DNA of 64,000 nt from a virus (lineage: Duplodnaviria > Caudoviricetes): IMG/VR virus record IMGVR_UViG_3300028888_000002; one strand, written 5' to 3'. A program made the position numbers and the translations under genes. Below the pieces are notes generated by a model that did not search any database, was not told where the DNA came from, and worked only from the letters and a program-made list of their open reading frames with translations. This document shows, piece after piece, positions 2,854 to 63,311 of the stretch (position 1 is its first letter; each line of letters opens with the position of its first letter).

Positions 2854-5076
2854 TTAGCGACCAAACCTGGCACCCTTGCGTTCCAGGATTTCTGTCAGCA
2901 AGTCGGTGGAAGCGGTTTCCTTTCCGTCCAAAACGCCATCAAGCATTTTCGCCCTAGCGTCCAGGACTTCAATGGCTTCCATATCCACGGTTCCAGGTGC
3001 TACAAGATAGTAAGAAGTGACGGAGTTATGCTGCCCCGACCTGTGCAGACGGTCTTCTGCCTGCCTGTGGAAGTTCGGGGTGTGCGAAAATTCAGCGAAA
3101 GCCACATCGGAGCAGACTTCCTGGAAGCCGTCAATGCCGACACCGCCCGCCTGGATATTGGCGACGATTACACGGCACTTTGGGTCGTTAATGAACTTCT
3201 TACGGGTTTCTTCACGTTCCGTGGCGGTCATACCGCCATAGATAATCGCAGGGCTGTAATCCTTGAGCGTGTCATAGAGGACTTCCACGACGGAGCGGTG
3301 CCACGCAAACAGCAGCAACTTCTTGTCCGATTCCAGGAAGTCTTCAATCCACTGCAACATAGACTTCTCTTTGAGAGCGTAGGCGGTTCGGAGCAGGTGG
3401 GCGACCTTATTGCGGGCGTTCTCACGTTCGCCCTTGATAGTTTCACCCGAAAATGCGATACGTTCCTCTTCGTAGTAATCGTCCATAGCGGATTGGTCCA
3501 CTTCAAGCGGGACGACTTCCATAACTTTGGGCGGGAGGTCTTTCATTACTTCGTTCTTCGTCCTGCGGAGCATACAGCGGACAAGCAGTTCGTGGAGTTC
3601 TTCCACATTGGACGCACCGTTGAACTTTACCCTGCCATAGCTGTCAGTCTGCGGGTCACAATACCTGTTCTTGAACATATAGAAGTTCTTGAACATAGAC
3701 GGCTCCACGATAGAAAGCAGCGTCCAAAACTGCATAGGCTTTGACATAGCGGGCGTTCCGCTCATACCGATACAGTGCGGGATAATCTTTGAGAGTTCCT
3801 TGAAAGCGATAGCTCTTTGAGAGTCGGGGTTTCCGATAGCCTGCACTTCGTCGCCTACAAGCAGACGGAACCCAACCTGGGCAAGCGGACCATCGCACAC
3901 GTAGAACACGTTGGTTTTACCGTTGCGTTCGGTGGACTCAAAGTGCCCCGCCCAATCCGAAAGCACGTCCCAATTTATGATATAGCTCTTATACTTTGAC
4001 AGCGGGTGCGGGGTCTTACCGCTCAACACTTCAACGTCGGGATAATGCTTCTTTGTAGCCCCTACCCATTTCCTATACGCTTCCTGCCACTGCAACTTCG
4101 TAGGGGCGTTCACCACATAAAGAGCGGGATAGGCATTCGCATAGACCATCCAGGACAACGCTTCTACGGTCTTACCGCAGTTGTGGACGACTGTATGGTT
4201 CGCAACAAAGTTCCCGAAATTCAGCACCTTTACGTCGTAGGTCATTCGCATTCCTGCGGACGTGATAGACACGACTTTCGCCATAGCGGACTTGCCGTCC
4301 CTTTCAACCTGGACGTATGCGTTCAAGGTGTCCTTGATTTCGGTCCAACCACTATCCGTAAGCACCTTATGGTCGGGCGTGGCAATAATGTAGGTATCGT
4401 CTTCAAGGGTAGCGTGGACGCAGCGTTTGATACCGCTTTGGATAACGTCCACGACTTCACCCATACCCAACGTATGCCCGTCTGCCAACAAACACTGAAT
4501 ATCCCAATCGCACGTCCCCTTTGTCCTGGCGAAAGCACGATACAGGGATTCCAGGGAAGTCTTGCGGGTCTTCCCGTTATTTCGGACGGTCACGGTCATA
4601 TCGCCACAGACGCAACCCATTTCGTCGCCCAGGGCAAGGCGACCGTGACGGAGCTGTGCGAACTTCAAGAAATCAATTTGGTAAGAACGCAGCCCAGGAA
4701 TAAGGGTTCCTTCGGGGTCCAACTTCGTAGCGTCAATCTTTGCCTGCTGCTTAACACGGGGGTCTTCACGCTTTTCGTTGGGGTCCTTTTCTTTCGGGGG
4801 ATTTGTCCAACCCGAAGCCTCCATCCAGGTCTTCGTCCCAATGTTCCAGGGAACTTCCCATTTTTGAGTCGCAGCGTTGTATTGACGTTCGGGCAGCTTG
4901 CGAACGCCTTCAAGAACTTTCTTCCAGGCATCCTTGTTATACGTGAACCAGGTCAACGCCACAATGGACTTGTCAACTTTCGTAAATTCGGCTTCATATC
5001 GCACACCCGCAATAGGTTCAATGGGCGTGGGGGCACGGCTCAATCTGTCCGACAAGCCAATAAGGTCATAACTCAT
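2854..5076 (-). CDS. SNF2/HARP-like helicase containing an intein
   Basis: N-terminal HARP-like segment (RKLPERQYNAATQKWEVP), DEMG..GKT Walker A interrupted by intein, DEVQ, SGTP, QAEDRLHRSGQ motif VI. Confidence 0.92.
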   Translation of the reverse strand: MSYDLIGLSDRLSRAPTPIEPIAGVRYEAEFTKVDKSIVALTWFTYNKDAWKKVLEGVRKLPERQYNAATQKWEVPWNIGTKTWMEASGWTNPPKEKDPNEKREDPRVKQQAKIDATKLDPEGTLIPGLRSYQIDFLKFAQLRHGRLALGDEMGCVCGDMTVTVRNNGKTRKTSLESLYRAFARTKGTCDWDIQCLLADGHTLGMGEVVDVIQSGIKRCVHATLEDDTYIIATPDHKVLTDSGWTEIKDTLNAYVQVERDGKSAMAKVVSITSAGMRMTYDVKVLNFGNFVANHTVVHNCGKTVEALSWMVYANAYPALYVVNAPTKLQWQEAYRKWVGATKKHYPDVEVLSGKTPHPLSKYKSYIINWDVLSDWAGHFESTERNGKTNVFYVCDGPLAQVGFRLLVGDEVQAIGNPDSQRAIAFKELSKIIPHCIGMSGTPAMSKPMQFWTLLSIVEPSMFKNFYMFKNRYCDPQTDSYGRVKFNGASNVEELHELLVRCMLRRTKNEVMKDLPPKVMEVVPLEVDQSAMDDYYEEERIAFSGETIKGERENARNKVAHLLRTAYALKEKSMLQWIEDFLESDKKLLLFAWHRSVVEVLYDTLKDYSPAIIYGGMTATEREETRKKFINDPKCRVIVANIQAGGVGIDGFQEVCSDVAFAEFSHTPNFHRQAEDRLHRSGQHNSVTSYYLVAPGTVDMEAIEVLDARAKMLDGVLDGKETASTDLLTEILERKGARFGR
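4180..4614 (-). mobile_element. mini-intein (145 aa, no homing endonuclease) in helicase Walker A
   Basis: Starts CVCGD (block A), ATPDHKVLT (block B), TYDVKV..FVANHTVVHN (blocks F/G), +1 residue Cys; splicing restores DEMG-CGKT. Confidence 0.93.
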
Positions 5077-12870: not shown

Positions 12871-12914
12871 TTTGGAAGCCTCGGTTAAAGTGGTTGTCTT
12901 TCCTTTACACCCTA

Positions 12915-12958
12915 AATATAACAAAATACCTGTGTGGTGTCAACAGGTATTGTTAAAA
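12915..12958 (-). promoter_or_regulatory. sigma70-type promoter with inverted-repeat operator
   Basis: TTGACA-N17-TATATT; AATACCTG..CAGGTATT flanks the -35. Confidence 0.8.
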
Positions 12959-23584: not shown

Positions 23585-23628
23585 TTTGCTATCCTCGGTT
23601 GAAGTGGTTGTCTTCTCTTTACGTCTAT

Positions 23629-23670
23629 AATATAACAAATTACCTGCTCTTTGTAAACAGGTAATTTAAA
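23629..23670 (-). promoter_or_regulatory. sigma70-type promoter with inverted-repeat operator
   Basis: TTTACA-N17-TATATT; AAATTACCTG..CAGGTAATTT. Confidence 0.75.
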
Positions 23671-27960: not shown

Positions 27961-27997
27961 TGGGCTATCCTCGGTTATTGGTTGTCTTTCTGCGTAT

Positions 27998-28042
27998 AAT
28001 ATAACAAAATACCTGCCGTTCGTCAACAGGTATTGTTAAAAT
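27998..28042 (-). promoter_or_regulatory. sigma70-type promoter with inverted-repeat operator
   Basis: TTGACG-N17-TATATT; AATACCTG..CAGGTATT. Confidence 0.8.
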
Positions 28043-31670: not shown

Positions 31671-32609
31671 CTACTTTTTTTCTTCGGGGACATAGGAATC
31701 AATAATGTCCTGTGTAGCCTTGCGAACTTCCTTGTCCTTTTCTTTCAAAATCGCAGCCTGCACGTTTGCGATAAAGTCAAGGTGCGGGACTTCAAAATCC
31801 TGCAAGCCTTCCAGGTAGGTTTCAAGTTCCTGGCGGGATTCACGCTTCGGGTCGGGGTGGACCTTTCCGAACTTTTTGAGCGGGACTTCCTTTACGGACA
31901 AATCGGACGTGTCAAGAATGTAGCAGCGGGGCTTGTAGTCTTCCATATCCGAAGCCTGGATATTCAAGCAGCCACAGGTCACGACGGACGCATTCTTGAA
32001 ATTCTTGATATAGCCGTGGTGATAGTCACCCGTAAGAATAAGCTGTGCGTTGGAACGCTCCAACAGTTCCTCGGCAATCACGCCAATGTCCGTGATAGGC
32101 TTGCCGTCCTTGTTATGCGGGCGAGCGTCGTTGTCGGGGAAGACAAGTTCGTGGACACACCAAATATCGCAATCGGGTATCTTTTCGGGTTCGGTCCCGA
32201 AAGGATATGCCTGGATTTCGGTCTTGATACTTTCGCCCTTAACGGTGTCAACACAGGACGTGGAACGCAATTCCGTGACGTTGCTCAAAGAGAAAATCCC
32301 ACCGATTGTGGACTTGCTGACATTCTCATATTGGTGGTGCAGTTCGTCGTGGTTCCCGATTAGGACACGCACGGGCGTGTTGCCAAAGCCCTGCAACAGA
32401 CGCAAAGCCTGGTTCGTCGCTTCGGTTGAAGTGCGGGCACGGTGGAACAGGTCGCCCAAAATCCACACTTCGTCGCAGTGTTCCTGTTCAACGATAGGGT
32501 AAAGCTGCTCAACAGACTGTCGCTGTTCTTCAAGCCAATTATCGGGGTCAACACGGCACGACGGGGCATCGCCACGCAAGTGCCAATCAGCCGTTAGTAA
32601 ACACTTCAT
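31671..32609 (-). CDS. Mre11/SbcD-like metallophosphoesterase nuclease
   Basis: ADWH, LGDLFH, GNHD, CVHE, TGDYHH. Confidence 0.92.
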   Translation of the reverse strand: MKCLLTADWHLRGDAPSCRVDPDNWLEEQRQSVEQLYPIVEQEHCDEVWILGDLFHRARTSTEATNQALRLLQGFGNTPVRVLIGNHDELHHQYENVSKSTIGGIFSLSNVTELRSTSCVDTVKGESIKTEIQAYPFGTEPEKIPDCDIWCVHELVFPDNDARPHNKDGKPITDIGVIAEELLERSNAQLILTGDYHHGYIKNFKNASVVTCGCLNIQASDMEDYKPRCYILDTSDLSVKEVPLKKFGKVHPDPKRESRQELETYLEGLQDFEVPHLDFIANVQAAILKEKDKEVRKATQDIIDSYVPEEKK

Positions 32610-32839
32610 TAACGCAATTCCTTCTTGTAGAAATCGTCTTCGCTGTCCATAACGTCCACAGGCGAAACGCAGTAACCGCTACCCCTGGGAATGTTGCCGT
32701 CCGTGACCTGCTCGGATTTTTCCTTTTCAGCCTTGAACGCTTCTGCCAACTTTTTAGTGGAGCAGAACCATTCTTTCTTAAAAAGGTCGTTACCGCTGCG
32801 GGCACCGCTGTTTTTGGTAATCTTGTAAATCGTCTTCAT
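32609..32839 (-). CDS. hypothetical protein
   Basis: AAGGA RBS, 76 aa. Confidence 0.6.
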   Translation of the reverse strand: MKTIYKITKNSGARSGNDLFKKEWFCSTKKLAEAFKAEKEKSEQVTDGNIPRGSGYCVSPVDVMDSEDDFYKKELR

Positions 32840-32851
32840 AAGGGTTTTCCT

Positions 32852-33139
32852 TTATCCTGCATTGAAACTAGACAGGATAACTATTGCTTCTTTGTCGGTT
32901 TCCAGGTCGGTGTAGCCAACCGCTGAAATTTCGTCAACTTTCTGCCAACGACCAATTTCAAAGTCGTAGTCGTATTGGACACGCTCGCTTCTGCCCTTGT
33001 AGTCCCCGTCCTGGGTTTCCTTGTCAAACACCTTGTCTTCCAAGAGTTGTTCCAACTTCTGCCTGTTGGCACAGGCGATAACGGCAGCGTCGTAGGTGTC
33101 GTAATCTACGTGATTAAGTTTAACTAGATAGAGTCGCAT
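32852..33139 (-). CDS. hypothetical protein
   Basis: MRLYLVK..YDTYDAAVI.....VILSSFNAG phage small-protein pattern. Confidence 0.7.
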   Translation of the reverse strand: MRLYLVKLNHVDYDTYDAAVIACANRQKLEQLLEDKVFDKETQDGDYKGRSERVQYDYDFEIGRWQKVDEISAVGYTDLETDKEAIVILSSFNAG

Positions 33140-33146
33140 AGTAAAT

Positions 33147-33215
33147 AAAAAAGCCCCGCCCATTTCCCGCACTTTAGACAACCACGACCGAGGATTGGGA
33201 AAAATTGGGCGGGGC
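33147..33215 (-). terminator. terminator-like hairpin with large loop antisense to early-gene leaders
   Basis: GCCCCGCCCAATTTTTCCC / GGGAAATGGGCGGGGC followed by T-run; loop AATCCTCGGTCGTGGTTGTCT. Confidence 0.75.
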
Positions 33216-33223
33216 AAAATTCC

Positions 33224-33787
33224 TTAAAGGTTATTCAACCGTTTGCTAATCCGTGTTAGAGCTATCTTTGCACACATCAAGGCGTTCTTATATCCTTCGT
33301 CGGTAAGGATTTCATAAGCCTGGTAGTTGTGCCCGTCTAGGTGGGTCCTAAACTTGCCGTCACGGACGCAGGTTGAAGATAAGGGGTATGCCAACTTTAC
33401 AGGTATGACACAACCAATCTTCCCGTCTTCATTAAATTTAGCAAATAATCCGTCAACGCACAAGGTATTGTGTTCGCCATTGTCGTATATTCCGACGTTT
33501 TCCACGAAAACAATGCCGTCCGATATGCTGTTGTTAAGGTGGAATGCCTTCTTGCAAAGCTGCTCACGCAGTTCACGGACCCTGCTTTCCCAGGTCGGCT
33601 CAATGCAGGTAGCACTTACAATGACCTGCTGAAGTTCATTGACTATCTTTGAAGCGGTTGCAAGCGTGTAACGCTTGCCCTGGAACTTACGCAGGACTTT
33701 CGGGAGTTCCGCAGAAAGATACTGTTCGCACGTAGGCTGTTTAGGCTTGTTCGGAGCCTTCCTACCTTTTATTAGTCTAGCCCGCAT
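33224..33787 (-). CDS. hypothetical protein
   Basis: 187 aa coupled ORF. Confidence 0.65.
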   Translation of the reverse strand: MRARLIKGRKAPNKPKQPTCEQYLSAELPKVLRKFQGKRYTLATASKIVNELQQVIVSATCIEPTWESRVRELREQLCKKAFHLNNSISDGIVFVENVGIYDNGEHNTLCVDGLFAKFNEDGKIGCVIPVKLAYPLSSTCVRDGKFRTHLDGHNYQAYEILTDEGYKNALMCAKIALTRISKRLNNL

Positions 33788-34037
33788 TCAACAGACCCTC
33801 CAGGATTGTGCAAAAGATAATGGTAACAAGCATACAGCCGAAAATGATAGAGAGCAGCAGGTAGTTTTCCGCATTCTTTACGGCTTTCGTGTAAGCCTGG
33901 TGCGTAGAACGCAGCAGAACACGCAGGTCGTTGACCTGCTGCTTCGCTGCTTCAAGTTCCGTCGGTGCGTCCGTGCTATTCAAATAACACTCAACTTCCA
34001 TAACGGTAAGTTCGGTATTTTCAACAAAATCGTCCAT
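33777..34037 (-). CDS. membrane protein (coiled coil + C-terminal TM)
   Basis: GGAG RBS; hydrophobic C-terminus. Confidence 0.65.
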   Translation of the reverse strand: MDDFVENTELTVMEVECYLNSTDAPTELEAAKQQVNDLRVLLRSTHQAYTKAVKNAENYLLLSIIFGCMLVTIIFCTILEGLLNAG

Positions 34038-34079
34038 TCGTGGTTGTAACTCCTACACTACCTATATAGGCGTATAGCG

Positions 34080-34463
34080 TCAAATTTCCACGTTGGAGTC
34101 AACCGAAAGACCTGCGAACGCCTTGCTGACCTTTTCTGCAAGCGACCACAGGACGGACATTTCAGCACCGTCGTATTTGTCAATCATATAGGATTCAAGG
34201 CATACGGTGTTCGGGTAGTCGTCCTTGAGCTGCCCCGCTGCCTTTGCGACCTGGAACGCTTCCTTGCGGTCCGCATAGCGGTAGGTCCCGTCCGCAGCCT
34301 TGATTACGAATCCGAAGCATTCGGGAAGACCCTTGATGATAATGCCCTTTTCCCTGCGGTCGTCCATAAGGTATTCACGGGCGGTGTTGTGGCTGTTAGC
34401 CACCGAAAACGGGTGCTTGAAGTCGGTATAGAAGCCGACGAACGGGCAAACTACGTGTTCCAT
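34080..34463 (-). CDS. hypothetical early protein
   Basis: FGF....Y.DRKEAFQVAKAAGQL..L.S conserved phage motif; first gene after promoter. Confidence 0.7.
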   Translation of the reverse strand: MEHVVCPFVGFYTDFKHPFSVANSHNTAREYLMDDRREKGIIIKGLPECFGFVIKAADGTYRYADRKEAFQVAKAAGQLKDDYPNTVCLESYMIDKYDGAEMSVLWSLAEKVSKAFAGLSVDSNVEI

Positions 34464-34500
34464 ACACTTAATCCTCGGTTGAATGGTTCAACGTAAGAAT

Positions 34501-34600
34501 AATATAACTAATTACCATACCGCAGTCAACAGGCGTTGTTAAAATTTTTGTTTACATTTTACTTACGCTATTGCTAAACATTGGATATTTTGTTATATTG
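34501..34600. promoter_or_regulatory. divergent promoter pair at strand switch
   Basis: Minus: TTGACT-N17-TATATT with degenerate operator; plus: TTGCTA-N17-TATATT. Confidence 0.75.
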
Positions 34601-34605
34601 CGGGT

Positions 34606-34809
34606 ATGACAAAACCACAGACCGATATTTCGGGAATGCTCGCTATGCTTCCCGAAGACAAGCAGAAACTTTACATTAACACGCTCTATGCAGTAGCCAG
34701 GACAGCGATTGAAGCCCGCTGCGGTGCCCTGCGTGTTATGGACCTGGAAACCCTGCAATCGCTTGAAGACGAAAGCAACGCCCGATTTGAAGAATGGTTA
34801 TTTCAGTGA
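34606..34809 (+). CDS. hypothetical protein (likely leaderless)
   Basis: ATG about 6 nt after -10 box. Confidence 0.55.
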   Translation: MTKPQTDISGMLAMLPEDKQKLYINTLYAVARTAIEARCGALRVMDLETLQSLEDESNARFEEWLFQ

Positions 34810-34858
34810 CCGCTAAAATAAGTTATATTTCCTATTAAACAACTAGCAGGACACTATT

Positions 34859-35380
34859 ATGCCTAAACTGAAAATACGCCTACACGAATCCCACGGCTCT
34901 ATGAAAGTTTGGGCTGTCACGTTTGACAGCGAAGACCAGGCTAACGAAGAAGACTACTATCTTCGTGACGGTTGGGGCAGCGAATTGAATACAGCCGTAT
35001 CGGGCAACACCCTTTATGCGGACGGCAGCAAAGCCGAACAAATCTTAAAGGAATGGTTCCCTGGAAAAGAAATCCAGGTCGTAGCTGCTCCGAGGGACGT
35101 GGAACAAATGCTTCTCGGCAATTTCACCGAAACCCTGGGCGAGAGCAAAAAGAAAGAAGACGCTGCGTGGGAACCGCCCGCCCCCGTCAAAATCAAGACA
35201 CTCAAAAAAGACGACCTGTTCACCTTGAAGCCGATTGAGAACCCGAAGGAATCCCAGGTGTGGTGCTTCCAGGGCTACGACCGCACTGACAGGACCTATT
35301 GGGCTATCCGTTGGGACAACATCAGCGTAAGCCGTGAGTTTAAGGGCGACAAGGACGTTTACACGGAATTTAACTTCTAA
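34859..35380 (+). CDS. two-domain putative internal head protein
   Basis: N-terminal MPKLKIRLHES; domains joined by GESKKKE. Confidence 0.65.
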   Translation: MPKLKIRLHESHGSMKVWAVTFDSEDQANEEDYYLRDGWGSELNTAVSGNTLYADGSKAEQILKEWFPGKEIQVVAAPRDVEQMLLGNFTETLGESKKKEDAAWEPPAPVKIKTLKKDDLFTLKPIENPKESQVWCFQGYDRTDRTYWAIRWDNISVSREFKGDKDVYTEFNF

Positions 35381-35958
35381 TGCAGACACTATACGTTCCG
35401 AAATATGGCATACACTATCGGGTGAACCCGAAGAACCCCTGCGAATTGCAGTGGTCCAAAAAGCCGTTCGGTCCTATGACTGCGTGGCAGAAAGCCTACA
35501 CGTTCAAGCGACCAATCCGTGCTTTGGACATTGACGACGAAACGGACCAGGGCGTTGTCGTTTTGAATGACAGCACGACCTACGTCGGTTCGGGCGTTCG
35601 TGTTTGGGGCAAGAAGTTCTATACTGCGGGTTCCCGCATTTACAGCCTATACGCAATAGGGGAAAGCAAAATGACACGAAAGCTGACAATCAAGGTCCAC
35701 GAAAGCACCGCTGAAAATATACCCGACGCACTTAAAAACAAGCTCCGCAACGTTATTGGCTATGAATACGATAACGGCAAATGCGTAGCGTTTGATTTTG
35801 AGCCGACGCACGAACACAATATCGTTTTCCTTTACGACGACAACGGGACCATATTGGATTACGTCAATTTCGGGGACAACTACGACGCTGCAAAGTATCT
35901 TTACGATATGACCGCCAGGGACATTAAGGCGGGCAGAAAAGTTAGCAACCACCTGTAA
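35380..35958 (+). CDS. two-domain putative internal head protein
   Basis: Internal GESKMTRKLTIKVHES. Confidence 0.6.
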   Translation: MQTLYVPKYGIHYRVNPKNPCELQWSKKPFGPMTAWQKAYTFKRPIRALDIDDETDQGVVVLNDSTTYVGSGVRVWGKKFYTAGSRIYSLYAIGESKMTRKLTIKVHESTAENIPDALKNKLRNVIGYEYDNGKCVAFDFEPTHEHNIVFLYDDNGTILDYVNFGDNYDAAKYLYDMTARDIKAGRKVSNHL

Positions 35959-35970
35959 GGGGGCGAATTT

Positions 35971-36291
35971 ATGGCAAGTATGAAAATCAAAGTCCACAGC
36001 ATTTCCGAAGACAAGGGCGACGTAGATTTGGACGCTATGATGTCGGAGTTCAAGCAAGTTCTCGGCAACGACTACAAGCTGCGTGGTTACACGCAGAACA
36101 CCAAATATGAGCAGCAGCTTGTGATTGAAGTAAAGGGTGTCGGTGAATTTTTCTGTGGCTACGCATTAGTTTACAACGGTGGCAGATTCAAGGTCCGCAC
36201 CTGGGACGCTGACACTAACTTTGACTTGGACTGTGATATGACGCTTTTCAAGAAACTTCAAACAATCTTCTACAAGTATTGCGGGGGCTAA
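35971..36291 (+). CDS. putative internal head protein
   Basis: N-terminal MASMKIKVHSISE. Confidence 0.6.
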   Translation: MASMKIKVHSISEDKGDVDLDAMMSEFKQVLGNDYKLRGYTQNTKYEQQLVIEVKGVGEFFCGYALVYNGGRFKVRTWDADTNFDLDCDMTLFKKLQTIFYKYCGG

Positions 36292-43379: not shown

Positions 43380-43422
43380 TTTAACAATACCTGTTGACAT
43401 TCAGCAGGTATTTTATTATATT
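43380..43422 (+). promoter_or_regulatory. sigma70-type promoter with inverted-repeat operator
   Basis: TTGACA-N17-TATATT; AATACCTG..CAGGTATT. Confidence 0.8.
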
Positions 43423-43453
43423 GTAGGTGTAACCACAACCGAGGATAGCCCCA

Positions 43454-44305
43454 ATGGAACTCAAAAGAACCTACATTCGCACAGACAAGAACGGCACAAA
43501 GCACTACGACGTGACATACCGCTGCGAGTGGTGCAGGGGCACGGGCATTCGCCCACAGTATATGCACGTTTTCGGGGGTGTATGCTTCTACTGTGACGGT
43601 TCGGGCTTCCATACCCGTGAAGTCAAGGAATACACGGAAGAATACGCAGCAAAGTTGGAAGCGAAGCGTAAGGCAAAGCAGGAAGCCAGGGAAGCCGAAG
43701 AACAAGCTATCCGTGATGCCTGGAACCCGCTTGATGAAGTCAAGAAGCAGGGCTTTGACGCAGTTATGGGCATTGTCGTGGACGCAAAGACGGGCAAGCC
43801 CGTGGAACGCCACGAAAAGGGCAGCAGTTGGCTCTATTTCACGGCAAAGTGCAAGAACATTTGGAACCTGTATTTCACGGACCTGGACAACCCCGTTATC
43901 GCAGAAGACAAGAACTACCAGGTCGTGCCGATGCCCTGGAACGAAGTGTTCGTCCCGAACTACACCGCTATGACATTGCAGTGGAACGAAAATATAATGC
44001 AGACGTTCCTGGACAACCACTACTACGGCTACCCGAAGTGCCCCAAAAGCGACGCTGTGGGCAAGGTTGGCGAACGCTTGACCGTTGATGCCACCATCAA
44101 GGAAATCAAGTCCTACGACACGTTCTACGGCACCAAATACTTCTACACGTTCCAGGACCGCAACTTCAACCTGCTCCGTTGGGAAACGAGCAAGGACCTG
44201 GAAATGGAAGTCGGGACCGCTGTAAAGCTGACGGGGACCGTCACGAAGCACGACTCCGACGGTTTCGGCTCTTACACCAACCTTAACCGCTGCAAGGTCG
44301 CATAA
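43454..44305 (+). CDS. DnaJ-type zinc finger + OB-fold-like protein
   Basis: CEWCRGTG, CFYCDGSG; C-terminal VGKVGER..GTVTKH..T.LNRC. Confidence 0.7.
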   Translation: MELKRTYIRTDKNGTKHYDVTYRCEWCRGTGIRPQYMHVFGGVCFYCDGSGFHTREVKEYTEEYAAKLEAKRKAKQEAREAEEQAIRDAWNPLDEVKKQGFDAVMGIVVDAKTGKPVERHEKGSSWLYFTAKCKNIWNLYFTDLDNPVIAEDKNYQVVPMPWNEVFVPNYTAMTLQWNENIMQTFLDNHYYGYPKCPKSDAVGKVGERLTVDATIKEIKSYDTFYGTKYFYTFQDRNFNLLRWETSKDLEMEVGTAVKLTGTVTKHDSDGFGSYTNLNRCKVA

Positions 44306-45654: not shown

Positions 45655-46060
45655 TAGAATCCCCGAATAATTCGGGGATTACTTTGTATGCGAAAACGTG
45701 ACATTTTTTTATTCCGTATAGGATATAAGGCTACCATACCGAGAAAAAAAATGTCACGCTAGAATCCAGGATAAAAGCTGTGGGCACGAAATGTTCGCTT
45801 CGCTCACATTATCGTGCCTATCACGCCCTTACGGGCGTGATGGTAGAGAAGATTTGGATTTACAGGTCTTTAAGGCAGGTGAAGTTCCTGGCTCCGTGAA
45901 AGGTGAGCCAAAGGGGGGAGCAAAGCGACCCCCGACGTGAACCTTTCCGAGTAGGGAATATGGGTGGTGGTTTGGGTTGGGTGAAAATTGTGTGAAAATG
46001 AGTGTCAAGAGCGGGGAGTAGCAAAAGGACCGTATGCGTGAGTTTAAAAATGTTACTATG
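45655..46060. other. putative replication origin (non-coding, multiple inverted repeats)
   Basis: AATCCCCGAA palindrome, CGTGACATTTTTTT/AAAAAAATGTCACG IR, hairpins with TTCGCTTCGCTC and GAGCAAAGCGA loops, G/T-rich tract. Confidence 0.55.
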
Positions 46061-63153: not shown

Positions 63154-63174
63154 TAACCACTTTGTTTATATTTT

Positions 63175-63311
63175 GGGAGCAGGACGGTTTGTAGCCATTC
63201 CGTCTTGTTACTTCCATAAGGGTGGAATAGCCCTACGTCGCTACTTTGGTAGCAGGCTCATTGGCGTGGGGCGGGGCAGCGTAGTTCTCGGTTTTCTACG
63301 CTGCCTTTTTC
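63175..63311 (+). ncRNA. candidate four-hairpin small RNA
   Basis: Own promoter TTGCAG-N17-TATATT (63144-63172), four consecutive stems, terminal GGCAGCGTAG/CTACGCTGCC + T-run; no ORF. Confidence 0.65.

Follow-up and report, generated by a model that had tools for sequence, protein, structure and literature searches.

A leftward early operon of a 215-kb uncultured phage, whose sequence is found in sheep, goat and bovine gut metagenomes, carries a hairpin between its genes 3 and 4, and the large loop of this hairpin had been predicted to be the complement of a leader shared by the early genes of the phage. The question raised by this locus is whether the hairpin simply ends a transcript or whether it is an RNA that pairs with other phage messages. 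It was addressed in the 64,000-nt stretch of DNA that contains the hairpin, referred to here as the window, and in the relatives of the phage. Near-identity and protein searches of a GenBank phage collection gave no match, and the lineage is known from metagenomes only. The nearest record is an IMG/VR contig, 99% identical at the hairpin locus, and G004 is a complete relative of 215,686 bp (99% complete). The 215-kb phage is probably lytic (virulent).

Setting and anatomy of the hairpin

Cumulative GC skew and the direction of transcription both switch at about 33-35 kb, which puts the hairpin 1.3 kb from the central divergent control region. The GC skew minimum (window positions 32000-36000) coincides with the point, at about 34.5 kb, where leftward genes give way to rightward ones and, because of this match, the divergent promoters may have a replication origin nearby. 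The minus strand carries all genes from 28 to 34.5 kb. The elements of the locus are the following:

34501-34529, minus strand: promoter of the hairpin's operon, TTGACT-17-TATATT, with the variant leader GAACCAUUCAACCGAGGAUUA
33224-34463, minus strand: three small genes (127, 86 and 187 aa) of no known family, upstream of the hairpin
33206-33215, minus strand: 5' arm of the lower stem, GCCCCGCCCA, pairing with 33162-33153 (10 bp, 9 of them G-C)
33205-33203, minus strand: 3-nt bulge, AUU, in the predicted fold
33202-33197, minus strand: 5' arm of the upper stem, UUUCCC, pairing with 33168-33163 (6 bp)
33169-33196, minus strand: 28-nt loop, with an opening cost of 3.1 kcal/mol
33193-33187, minus strand: loop block 1, anti-RBS CCUCGGU, kept in 8/8 hairpin types (as CCUUGG in L018/L025)
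33186-33176, minus strand: loop block 2, anti-box CGUGGUUGUCU, kept in 8/8 types (as GUUGUUU in L020/L035 and L024)
33153-33168, minus strand: 3' arms, GGGAAA of the upper and UGGGCGGGGC of the lower stem, as given by fold and covariation
33143-33152, minus strand: U-tract UUUUUUAUUU, a terminator-like tail; tails are U-rich in all relatives, weakest in L017
32852-33139, minus strand: conserved gene of 95 aa with its ATG at 33139, 3 nt past the U-tract; anchor for the relatives

The minus-strand RNA from 33215 to 33153 folds into a two-tier GC-rich hairpin (MFE -31.5 kcal/mol, z = -2.4 against shuffles), which takes up nearly all of the 84 nt that separate the 187-aa gene (33224-33787) from the 95-aa gene. 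Its loop reads AAUCCUCGGUCGUGGUUGUCUAAAGUGC, including AAUCCUCGGUCGUGGUUGUCU, and both the structure and the loop motif described in the original prediction are thus present between 33196 and 33169. Since the three small genes precede the hairpin, their transcript would bear it at its 3' end. As in intrinsic terminators, a G+C-rich stem is directly followed by a U-tract, in the window as well as in the relatives, and the U-tract adjoins the hairpin on the minus strand only. The loop of 28 nt, placed above a second stem of 6 bp, departs from the short loops (about 3-8 nt) of that class and is atypical for an efficient intrinsic terminator, and a consensus terminator scan of the window did not list the hairpin at 33153-33215. 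No function could be assigned by PHROGs and Pfam to the three upstream genes or to the downstream 95-aa gene; therefore, the flanking genes give no hint of an RNA chaperone (Hfq, ProQ/FinO or CsrA).

Two other ways of reading the locus were discarded. A TTG-initiated ORF of 121 codons running through the hairpin (32852-33217) does not hold, as the lengths of the hairpins differ by non-multiples of three and the homologues all begin with MRLY. Likewise, for a conserved internal promoter that would make the hairpin a transcript of its own, sought by eye within the 60 nt upstream, a passable -35/-10 pair exists in G004 only, and the similarity seen there is that of the upstream gene's coding sequence.

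Contigs from sheep-rumen metatranscriptomes of three studies cover 32.2-34.48 kb as well as the rightward genes. As they come without strand, ends or levels, all that follows from this coverage is the presence of the region in RNA libraries. In one sample the contigs break at 33134/33163, and a variant-strain contig from run X16, again with neither strand nor end information, bridges the hairpin. Between the divergent promoters, the gap 34479-34631 is free of contigs in all four RNA-library runs while its flanks are covered, and one contig ends at 34478, near the start expected behind the promoter at 34501. This pattern is compatible with real transcripts from the divergent promoters, for which it is weak evidence.

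A hairpin conserved among relatives

Relatives were gathered from viral and metagenome contigs by means of the downstream 95-aa protein and not by means of the loop. The hairpin is present in every relative in which this protein keeps at least 47% identity, a group within which identity drops to 47-73%, while it was not found next to homologues with 36% identity or less, which come from other environments. L024 carries an inserted gene that separates the hairpin from the anchor gene, and the hairpin has stayed at the end of the upstream gene. Eight hairpin types can be distinguished, each with a folding energy of -30 to -38 kcal/mol and with stems that are unrelated in sequence.

Stem covariation was scored on a base-anchored alignment; MAFFT and RNAalifold applied to untrimmed hairpins mis-registered two lineages. 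Across the eight types, seven of nine pairs of the lower stem show compensatory changes on both sides. Standard pairs make up 98.6% of the lower-stem cells, a value reached in 0 of 500 shuffles, and when the partner is slid by 1-3 columns pairing falls to about 45%. The loop behaves differently from the stems: both blocks are intact down to 47% identity of the neighbouring protein, and its only two substitutions, those found in L018/L025 and in L020/L035 with L024, are both C-to-U. On the minus-strand RNA such a change retains a G-U pair with the leader. The spacer between the blocks is more variable, with zero, one (U) or four (UGUA) nt. A natural variant strain seen in RNA run X16 differs only at the bulge and 5' arm of the upper stem and at the flank of the U-tract. 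The loop is thus conserved in relatives, as the original prediction required.

A parallel change of loop and leaders had also been expected. In the lineage with the GUUGUUU loop, the base before ACAACCA in the leaders is A in three of four cases and G in none, while G takes this position in 21 of 23 leaders of the window and G004, so that an A-for-G shift matching the altered loop does exist. It represents one evolutionary event, leaders of the same genome are not independent, and the sole informative leader of G003 is contrary, with a leader A opposite a loop C; for these reasons, the loop-leader covariation is suggestive only.

A 17-mer scan of viral contigs gave six matches in GC-rich contigs (L005-L008, L011 and L013) that were attributed to chance. 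A looser pattern scan gave more than 100 chance matches, from which a filter for stem and U-tail left a single contig, L096, that shares no protein with the window. This contig (IMGVR_UViG_3300022934_003563) has at 3540-3640 a G+C-rich terminator-like hairpin with the loop UUGGUUUCGUGGUUGUCC and, about 30 nt past it, a start region GACAACCAUGG complementary to that loop, which may be chance or an analogous arrangement.

Early leaders and their complementarity to the loop

The window contains eight promoters that belong to one family, recognised by the sequence motif TTGACA-N17-TATATT with a TG ahead of the -10:

12915, 23629, 27998 and 34501, minus strand: family promoters
34599, 43422, 58131 and 63340, plus strand: family promoters

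At most of them, AGACAACCAC stands about 12-20 nt past the -10 and is followed, after 1-5 nt, by AACCGAGGAUAGC and the AUG. The two loop blocks are the reverse complement of ACCGAGG and of AGACAACCAC, and in the complement of the loop motif the leader boxes GACAACCAC and ACCGAGGAT are 1 nt apart. As had been claimed, the leaders at 12.9, 23.6, 28.0 and 43.4 kb carry the same boxes, set 1-4 nt apart. ACCGAGG precedes about a dozen start codons of the window, half of them without an adjoining promoter, and for this reason it is an extended ribosome-binding site specific to the phage. Its longer form, (A)ACCGAGG(AUAGC), is seen 4-8 nt before the AUG also at genes that lack a family promoter, for example at 1313, 7257, 18827, 23017, 27622 and 30338 (minus strand); in all, about 11 genes of the window have it. 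In G004, 32 family promoters were counted, with the box in about 26 leaders and both box and RBS in about 21.

The predicted partners of the loop in the window are the following:

23589-23629, minus strand: leader AGACAACCAC-UUCA-ACCGAGGAUAGC, then AUG; duplex -30.4, net -24.1 kcal/mol
43422-43456, plus strand: leader of a family promoter, 15/16 to the loop complement; net -21.2 kcal/mol
27965-27998, minus strand: leader of a family promoter; net -20.9 kcal/mol
12877-12915, minus strand: leader of a family promoter; net -20.1 kcal/mol
34038-34047, minus strand: 10-nt perfect loop complement ACAACCACGA, directly before the AUG (34037) of the operon's second gene

Net energies are those of the duplex after subtraction of the opening costs. 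The leaders account for four of the six best non-self duplex sites of the window. A continuous duplex of 20 bp within the closed loop is impossible without strain. The 15/16 match near 43.4 kb lies at about 43431-43446, 2 nt away from where it had been placed. Both perfect 10-nt pairings proposed within the hairpin's own operon were recovered at the expected positions, one to ACCGAGGATT at 34479-34470 and the other to ACAACCACGA. This second site is confined to the lineage of the window and L016, and the variant leader of the operon itself is a weak predicted target (net -13.6 kcal/mol).

Specificity was assessed in G004, where seven promoter leaders and the loop account for all eight occurrences of the pattern ACAACCAC-N0-8-CCRAGG, versus 0 for the reversed pattern; therefore, the match between loop and leaders is not due to chance. 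When the loop was scanned with RNAduplex against both strands, setting aside its own complement, leaders of the 32 family promoters provided nine of the 10 best and 16 of the 20 best sites. The median energy of the loop with these leaders was -29.7 kcal/mol, with 19 of 32 at -28 or below, compared to a median of -13.4 kcal/mol for 300 shuffled loops, which reached -28 with at most one leader, and to -15.1 kcal/mol for random genomic 55-mers. The comparison with shuffled controls that had been proposed thus sets the leaders far apart. As expected of an antisense RNA, the loop offers a seed that is predicted to be accessible and is complementary to initiation regions beyond chance, and this seed is conserved, with changes that keep the pairing (the leader shift being a single event).

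Further features of these promoters were observed. An inverted repeat straddles the -35 of early promoters (12925-12951, 23637-23667, 28008-28034 and 43386-43412, and about 30 sites in G004) and a U-run overlapping the -10 region comes after it. The arms read CCTG/CAGG in the window and CCTAT/ATAGG in G004, a compensatory difference; at 34.5 kb, with no gene upstream in need of a terminator, the repeat is degenerate. Taken together, these traits make it look like a terminator hairpin fused to the promoter and not like a protein operator. At the rightward divergent promoter (34599-34809, plus strand), the ATG of a 67-aa protein stands at 34606, 7 nt past the -10, which suggests that this gene has a leaderless mRNA. 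Relatives share the layout, with a ACAACCAC-like box within the first codons.

A region at 63160-63311 (plus strand) has the appearance of a structured RNA that stands alone and has a promoter-like site of its own. The loop of the terminator at 63274-63306 is UUCUCGGUUUU, antisense to RBSs of the AACCGAGAA type, and in G004 the stem is altered with compensation while UUCUCGGUU is kept. Three strong G+C-rich terminator-like hairpins were found in the window, at 33153-33215, 63274-63306 and 45659-45679 (the last with a 3-nt loop), and a conserved CUCGGU loop, antisense to the RBS core ACCGAG, is present in the first two, which lends weight to an RNA-level reading of the 33-kb hairpin.

Function of the hairpin and comparison with known systems

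Since it is conserved across relatives, the hairpin is probably an RNA that pairs with the early leaders. On the solid ground of anatomy and comparison, we infer the RNA species, its pairing in vivo and the sign of its regulation; in our judgement there is about an even chance that the hairpin is an antisense element at a transcript 3' end and keeps ribosomes from binding to these leaders. It would sit at the 3' end of the first leftward early transcript, where the GC-rich two-tier stem and U-tract would serve as intrinsic terminator and 3' stabiliser, and its large open loop would display two short antisense blocks to the AGACAACCAC box and ACCGAGG RBS of the early regulon. Block 1 alone may pair with about a dozen more phage genes that bear the extended RBS. 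As block 1 would cover the Shine-Dalgarno of leaders that are otherwise unstructured and C/A-rich, 30S binding to early mRNAs would be expected to be blocked, the duplex may become exposed to cleavage by RNase III, and early translation would be shut off as the RNA builds up.

This is largely how the original prediction had interpreted the locus, and the conserved, accessible and complementary loop speaks in its favour. Less easily accommodated are the weakness of the operon's own leader as a target and the stoichiometry: each genome has a single loop, transcribed from a promoter of the class that also drives the approximately 25-30 leader-bearing targets of that loop. Therefore, the RNA would have to far outlast the mRNAs or act catalytically. 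Because of this difficulty, the hairpin may instead be the partner that is regulated, with abundant leader mRNAs docking on the nascent loop and altering read-through into the roughly 5 kb of genes downstream, or processing or stability. As early transcription accumulates, the way to the delayed-early genes would be opened. With many leaders per loop, the numbers would fit, and no family promoter is found from the hairpin to the cassette at 27998, which leaves the seven minus-strand genes from 33139 to 28060, with SbcD-like and SbcC-like nuclease subunits among their products, dependent on read-through or on a different class of promoter. In addition, a contig of RNA run X16 spans the hairpin, although contigs cannot prove a single transcript, and the oversized loop is odd for a plain terminator. 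We keep this explanation on account of the stoichiometry, the promoter-less downstream region and the loop size, but consider it unlikely: the complementary blocks are loop sequences with hardly any overlap into the upper stem, so that invasion of the 10-bp GC stem is not predicted, and we know of no precedent for a trans RNA that causes read-through by binding in a terminator loop.

The variable spacing of the blocks (0, 1 or 4 nt in the loops, 1-5 nt in the leaders) favours a bulged RNA duplex over a rigid protein site on double-stranded DNA. It thereby argues against the proposal that the shared sequence works as DNA, a protein of the leader box binding also to the hairpin copy as a roadblock or for titration, or that an antisense transcript of the plus strand presents a decoy of the leader. 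Box and RBS are of course the same duplex DNA in either orientation, and the ACAACCAC box lies at a fixed distance past the -10 in about 26 of 32 G004 leaders, where it could mark the site of a factor acting on DNA or nascent RNA. However, the covarying stem indicates a single-stranded hairpin, and the L018 loop in sense orientation reads ACCAAGG, which is found in no leader. It had been recognised from the outset that the motif might be the leader of an ORF on the plus strand; no plus-strand ORF of at least 30 aa starts at the motif in the window, no ATG follows it on that strand in any relative, and neither a family promoter nor a conserved -10/-35 is found upstream nearby. We regard the DNA or plus-strand proposal as improbable. 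Even less credit can be given to an ordinary terminator or mRNA-stabilising hairpin whose loop is the relic of an inverted leader cassette, hitch-hiking or kept for a reason unrelated to leaders. An inverted copy could be seeded by one of the promoter-leader cassettes, of which each genome has about 30, and the DNA of the downstream gene is also well conserved among the nearest relatives. A relic, however, would decay at the rate of nearby non-coding bases, whereas both blocks are intact in eight lineages in spite of diverged or rearranged stems, bulge, spacer, tail and flanking genes, and the hairpin is retained in L024 despite the downstream insertion.

Returning to the antisense element, a broader proposal is that AGACAACCAC and ACCGAGG form a private leader code, present on about 30 early operons and on other genes and read by the loops of the 33-kb and 63.2-kb hairpins. 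Such a regulon-wide switch, made of RNA only, would shut off or gate the early programme and leave host mRNAs untouched; we put it forward tentatively and hold it to be possible though doubtful. Temporal control in virulent phages is usually ascribed to proteins, such as sigma and anti-sigma factors, modification of RNA polymerase and translational repressors like T4 RegA. One conserved RNA loop acting on the common leader of an entire early regulon would provide master control at the RNA level in a jumbo phage, and in that case the extended RBS would be an address label that tells phage messages from host messages. The prediction is sharp, with two short blocks and defined targets, and can be tested with reporters even though the phage is uncultured. 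The conserved loop and the leader code also offer a sequence signature by which metagenomes can be searched for this lineage of rumen phages and for its early genes.

Phage RNAs that occlude the RBS of phage genes include the c4 RNA of P1/P7, the sar RNA of P22 and the OOP RNA of lambda, of which c4 is processed from its target's own transcript and uses two short complementary blocks. Each of them has one target and serves immunity or the lysogeny decision of a temperate phage, whereas the predicted targets of the present hairpin are a genome-wide early regulon in a probably lytic 215-kb phage. The c4 family is included in Rfam, and a covariance-model search of the whole window against Rfam 15 gave 0 matches at gathering score (best local match E = 9.3, far below threshold). 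In enterobacterial sRNAs derived from 3'UTRs, such as CpxQ and SroC, the terminator is common to the sRNA and its parent mRNA. The hairpin RNA would similarly arise by termination with or without 5' processing, and it has an A/U-rich stretch before the hairpin and a U-tail after it, as in Hfq-binding modules. In CpxQ and SroC, however, the seed is single-stranded and 5' of the terminator, while here it lies in the loop.

A seed in the loop is known from Helicobacter pylori RepG, where the loop of a Rho-independent terminator pairs with an mRNA 5' leader (PMC8295292). RepG is a chromosomal sRNA in its own right, and its C/U-rich loop targets a G-repeat in one operon, whereas the phage hairpin, a predicted RNA of unrelated sequence, would end a protein-coding early operon and has two sequence-specific blocks for about 20-30 leaders. 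In Staphylococcus aureus, the loop of RNAIII hairpin 13 sequesters the RBS of coa, blocks 30S and recruits RNase III, and the 3' domain of RNAIII sequesters the Shine-Dalgarno of several mRNAs through bipartite contacts (PMC2837412). The 514-nt RNAIII is a quorum-sensing effector whose loops are of the UCCC type and which acts on host targets, in contrast to the single hairpin described here, which would draw its specificity from the extended RBS ACCGAGG and the box upstream of it. The element therefore resembles the anti-RBS loop RNAs RNAIII, RepG and P1 c4 and is a member of none of those families. What is new is the placing of the seed in the oversized loop of an operon-internal terminator in a large, probably virulent phage, together with a bipartite seed that matches the shared leader of a whole early regulon.
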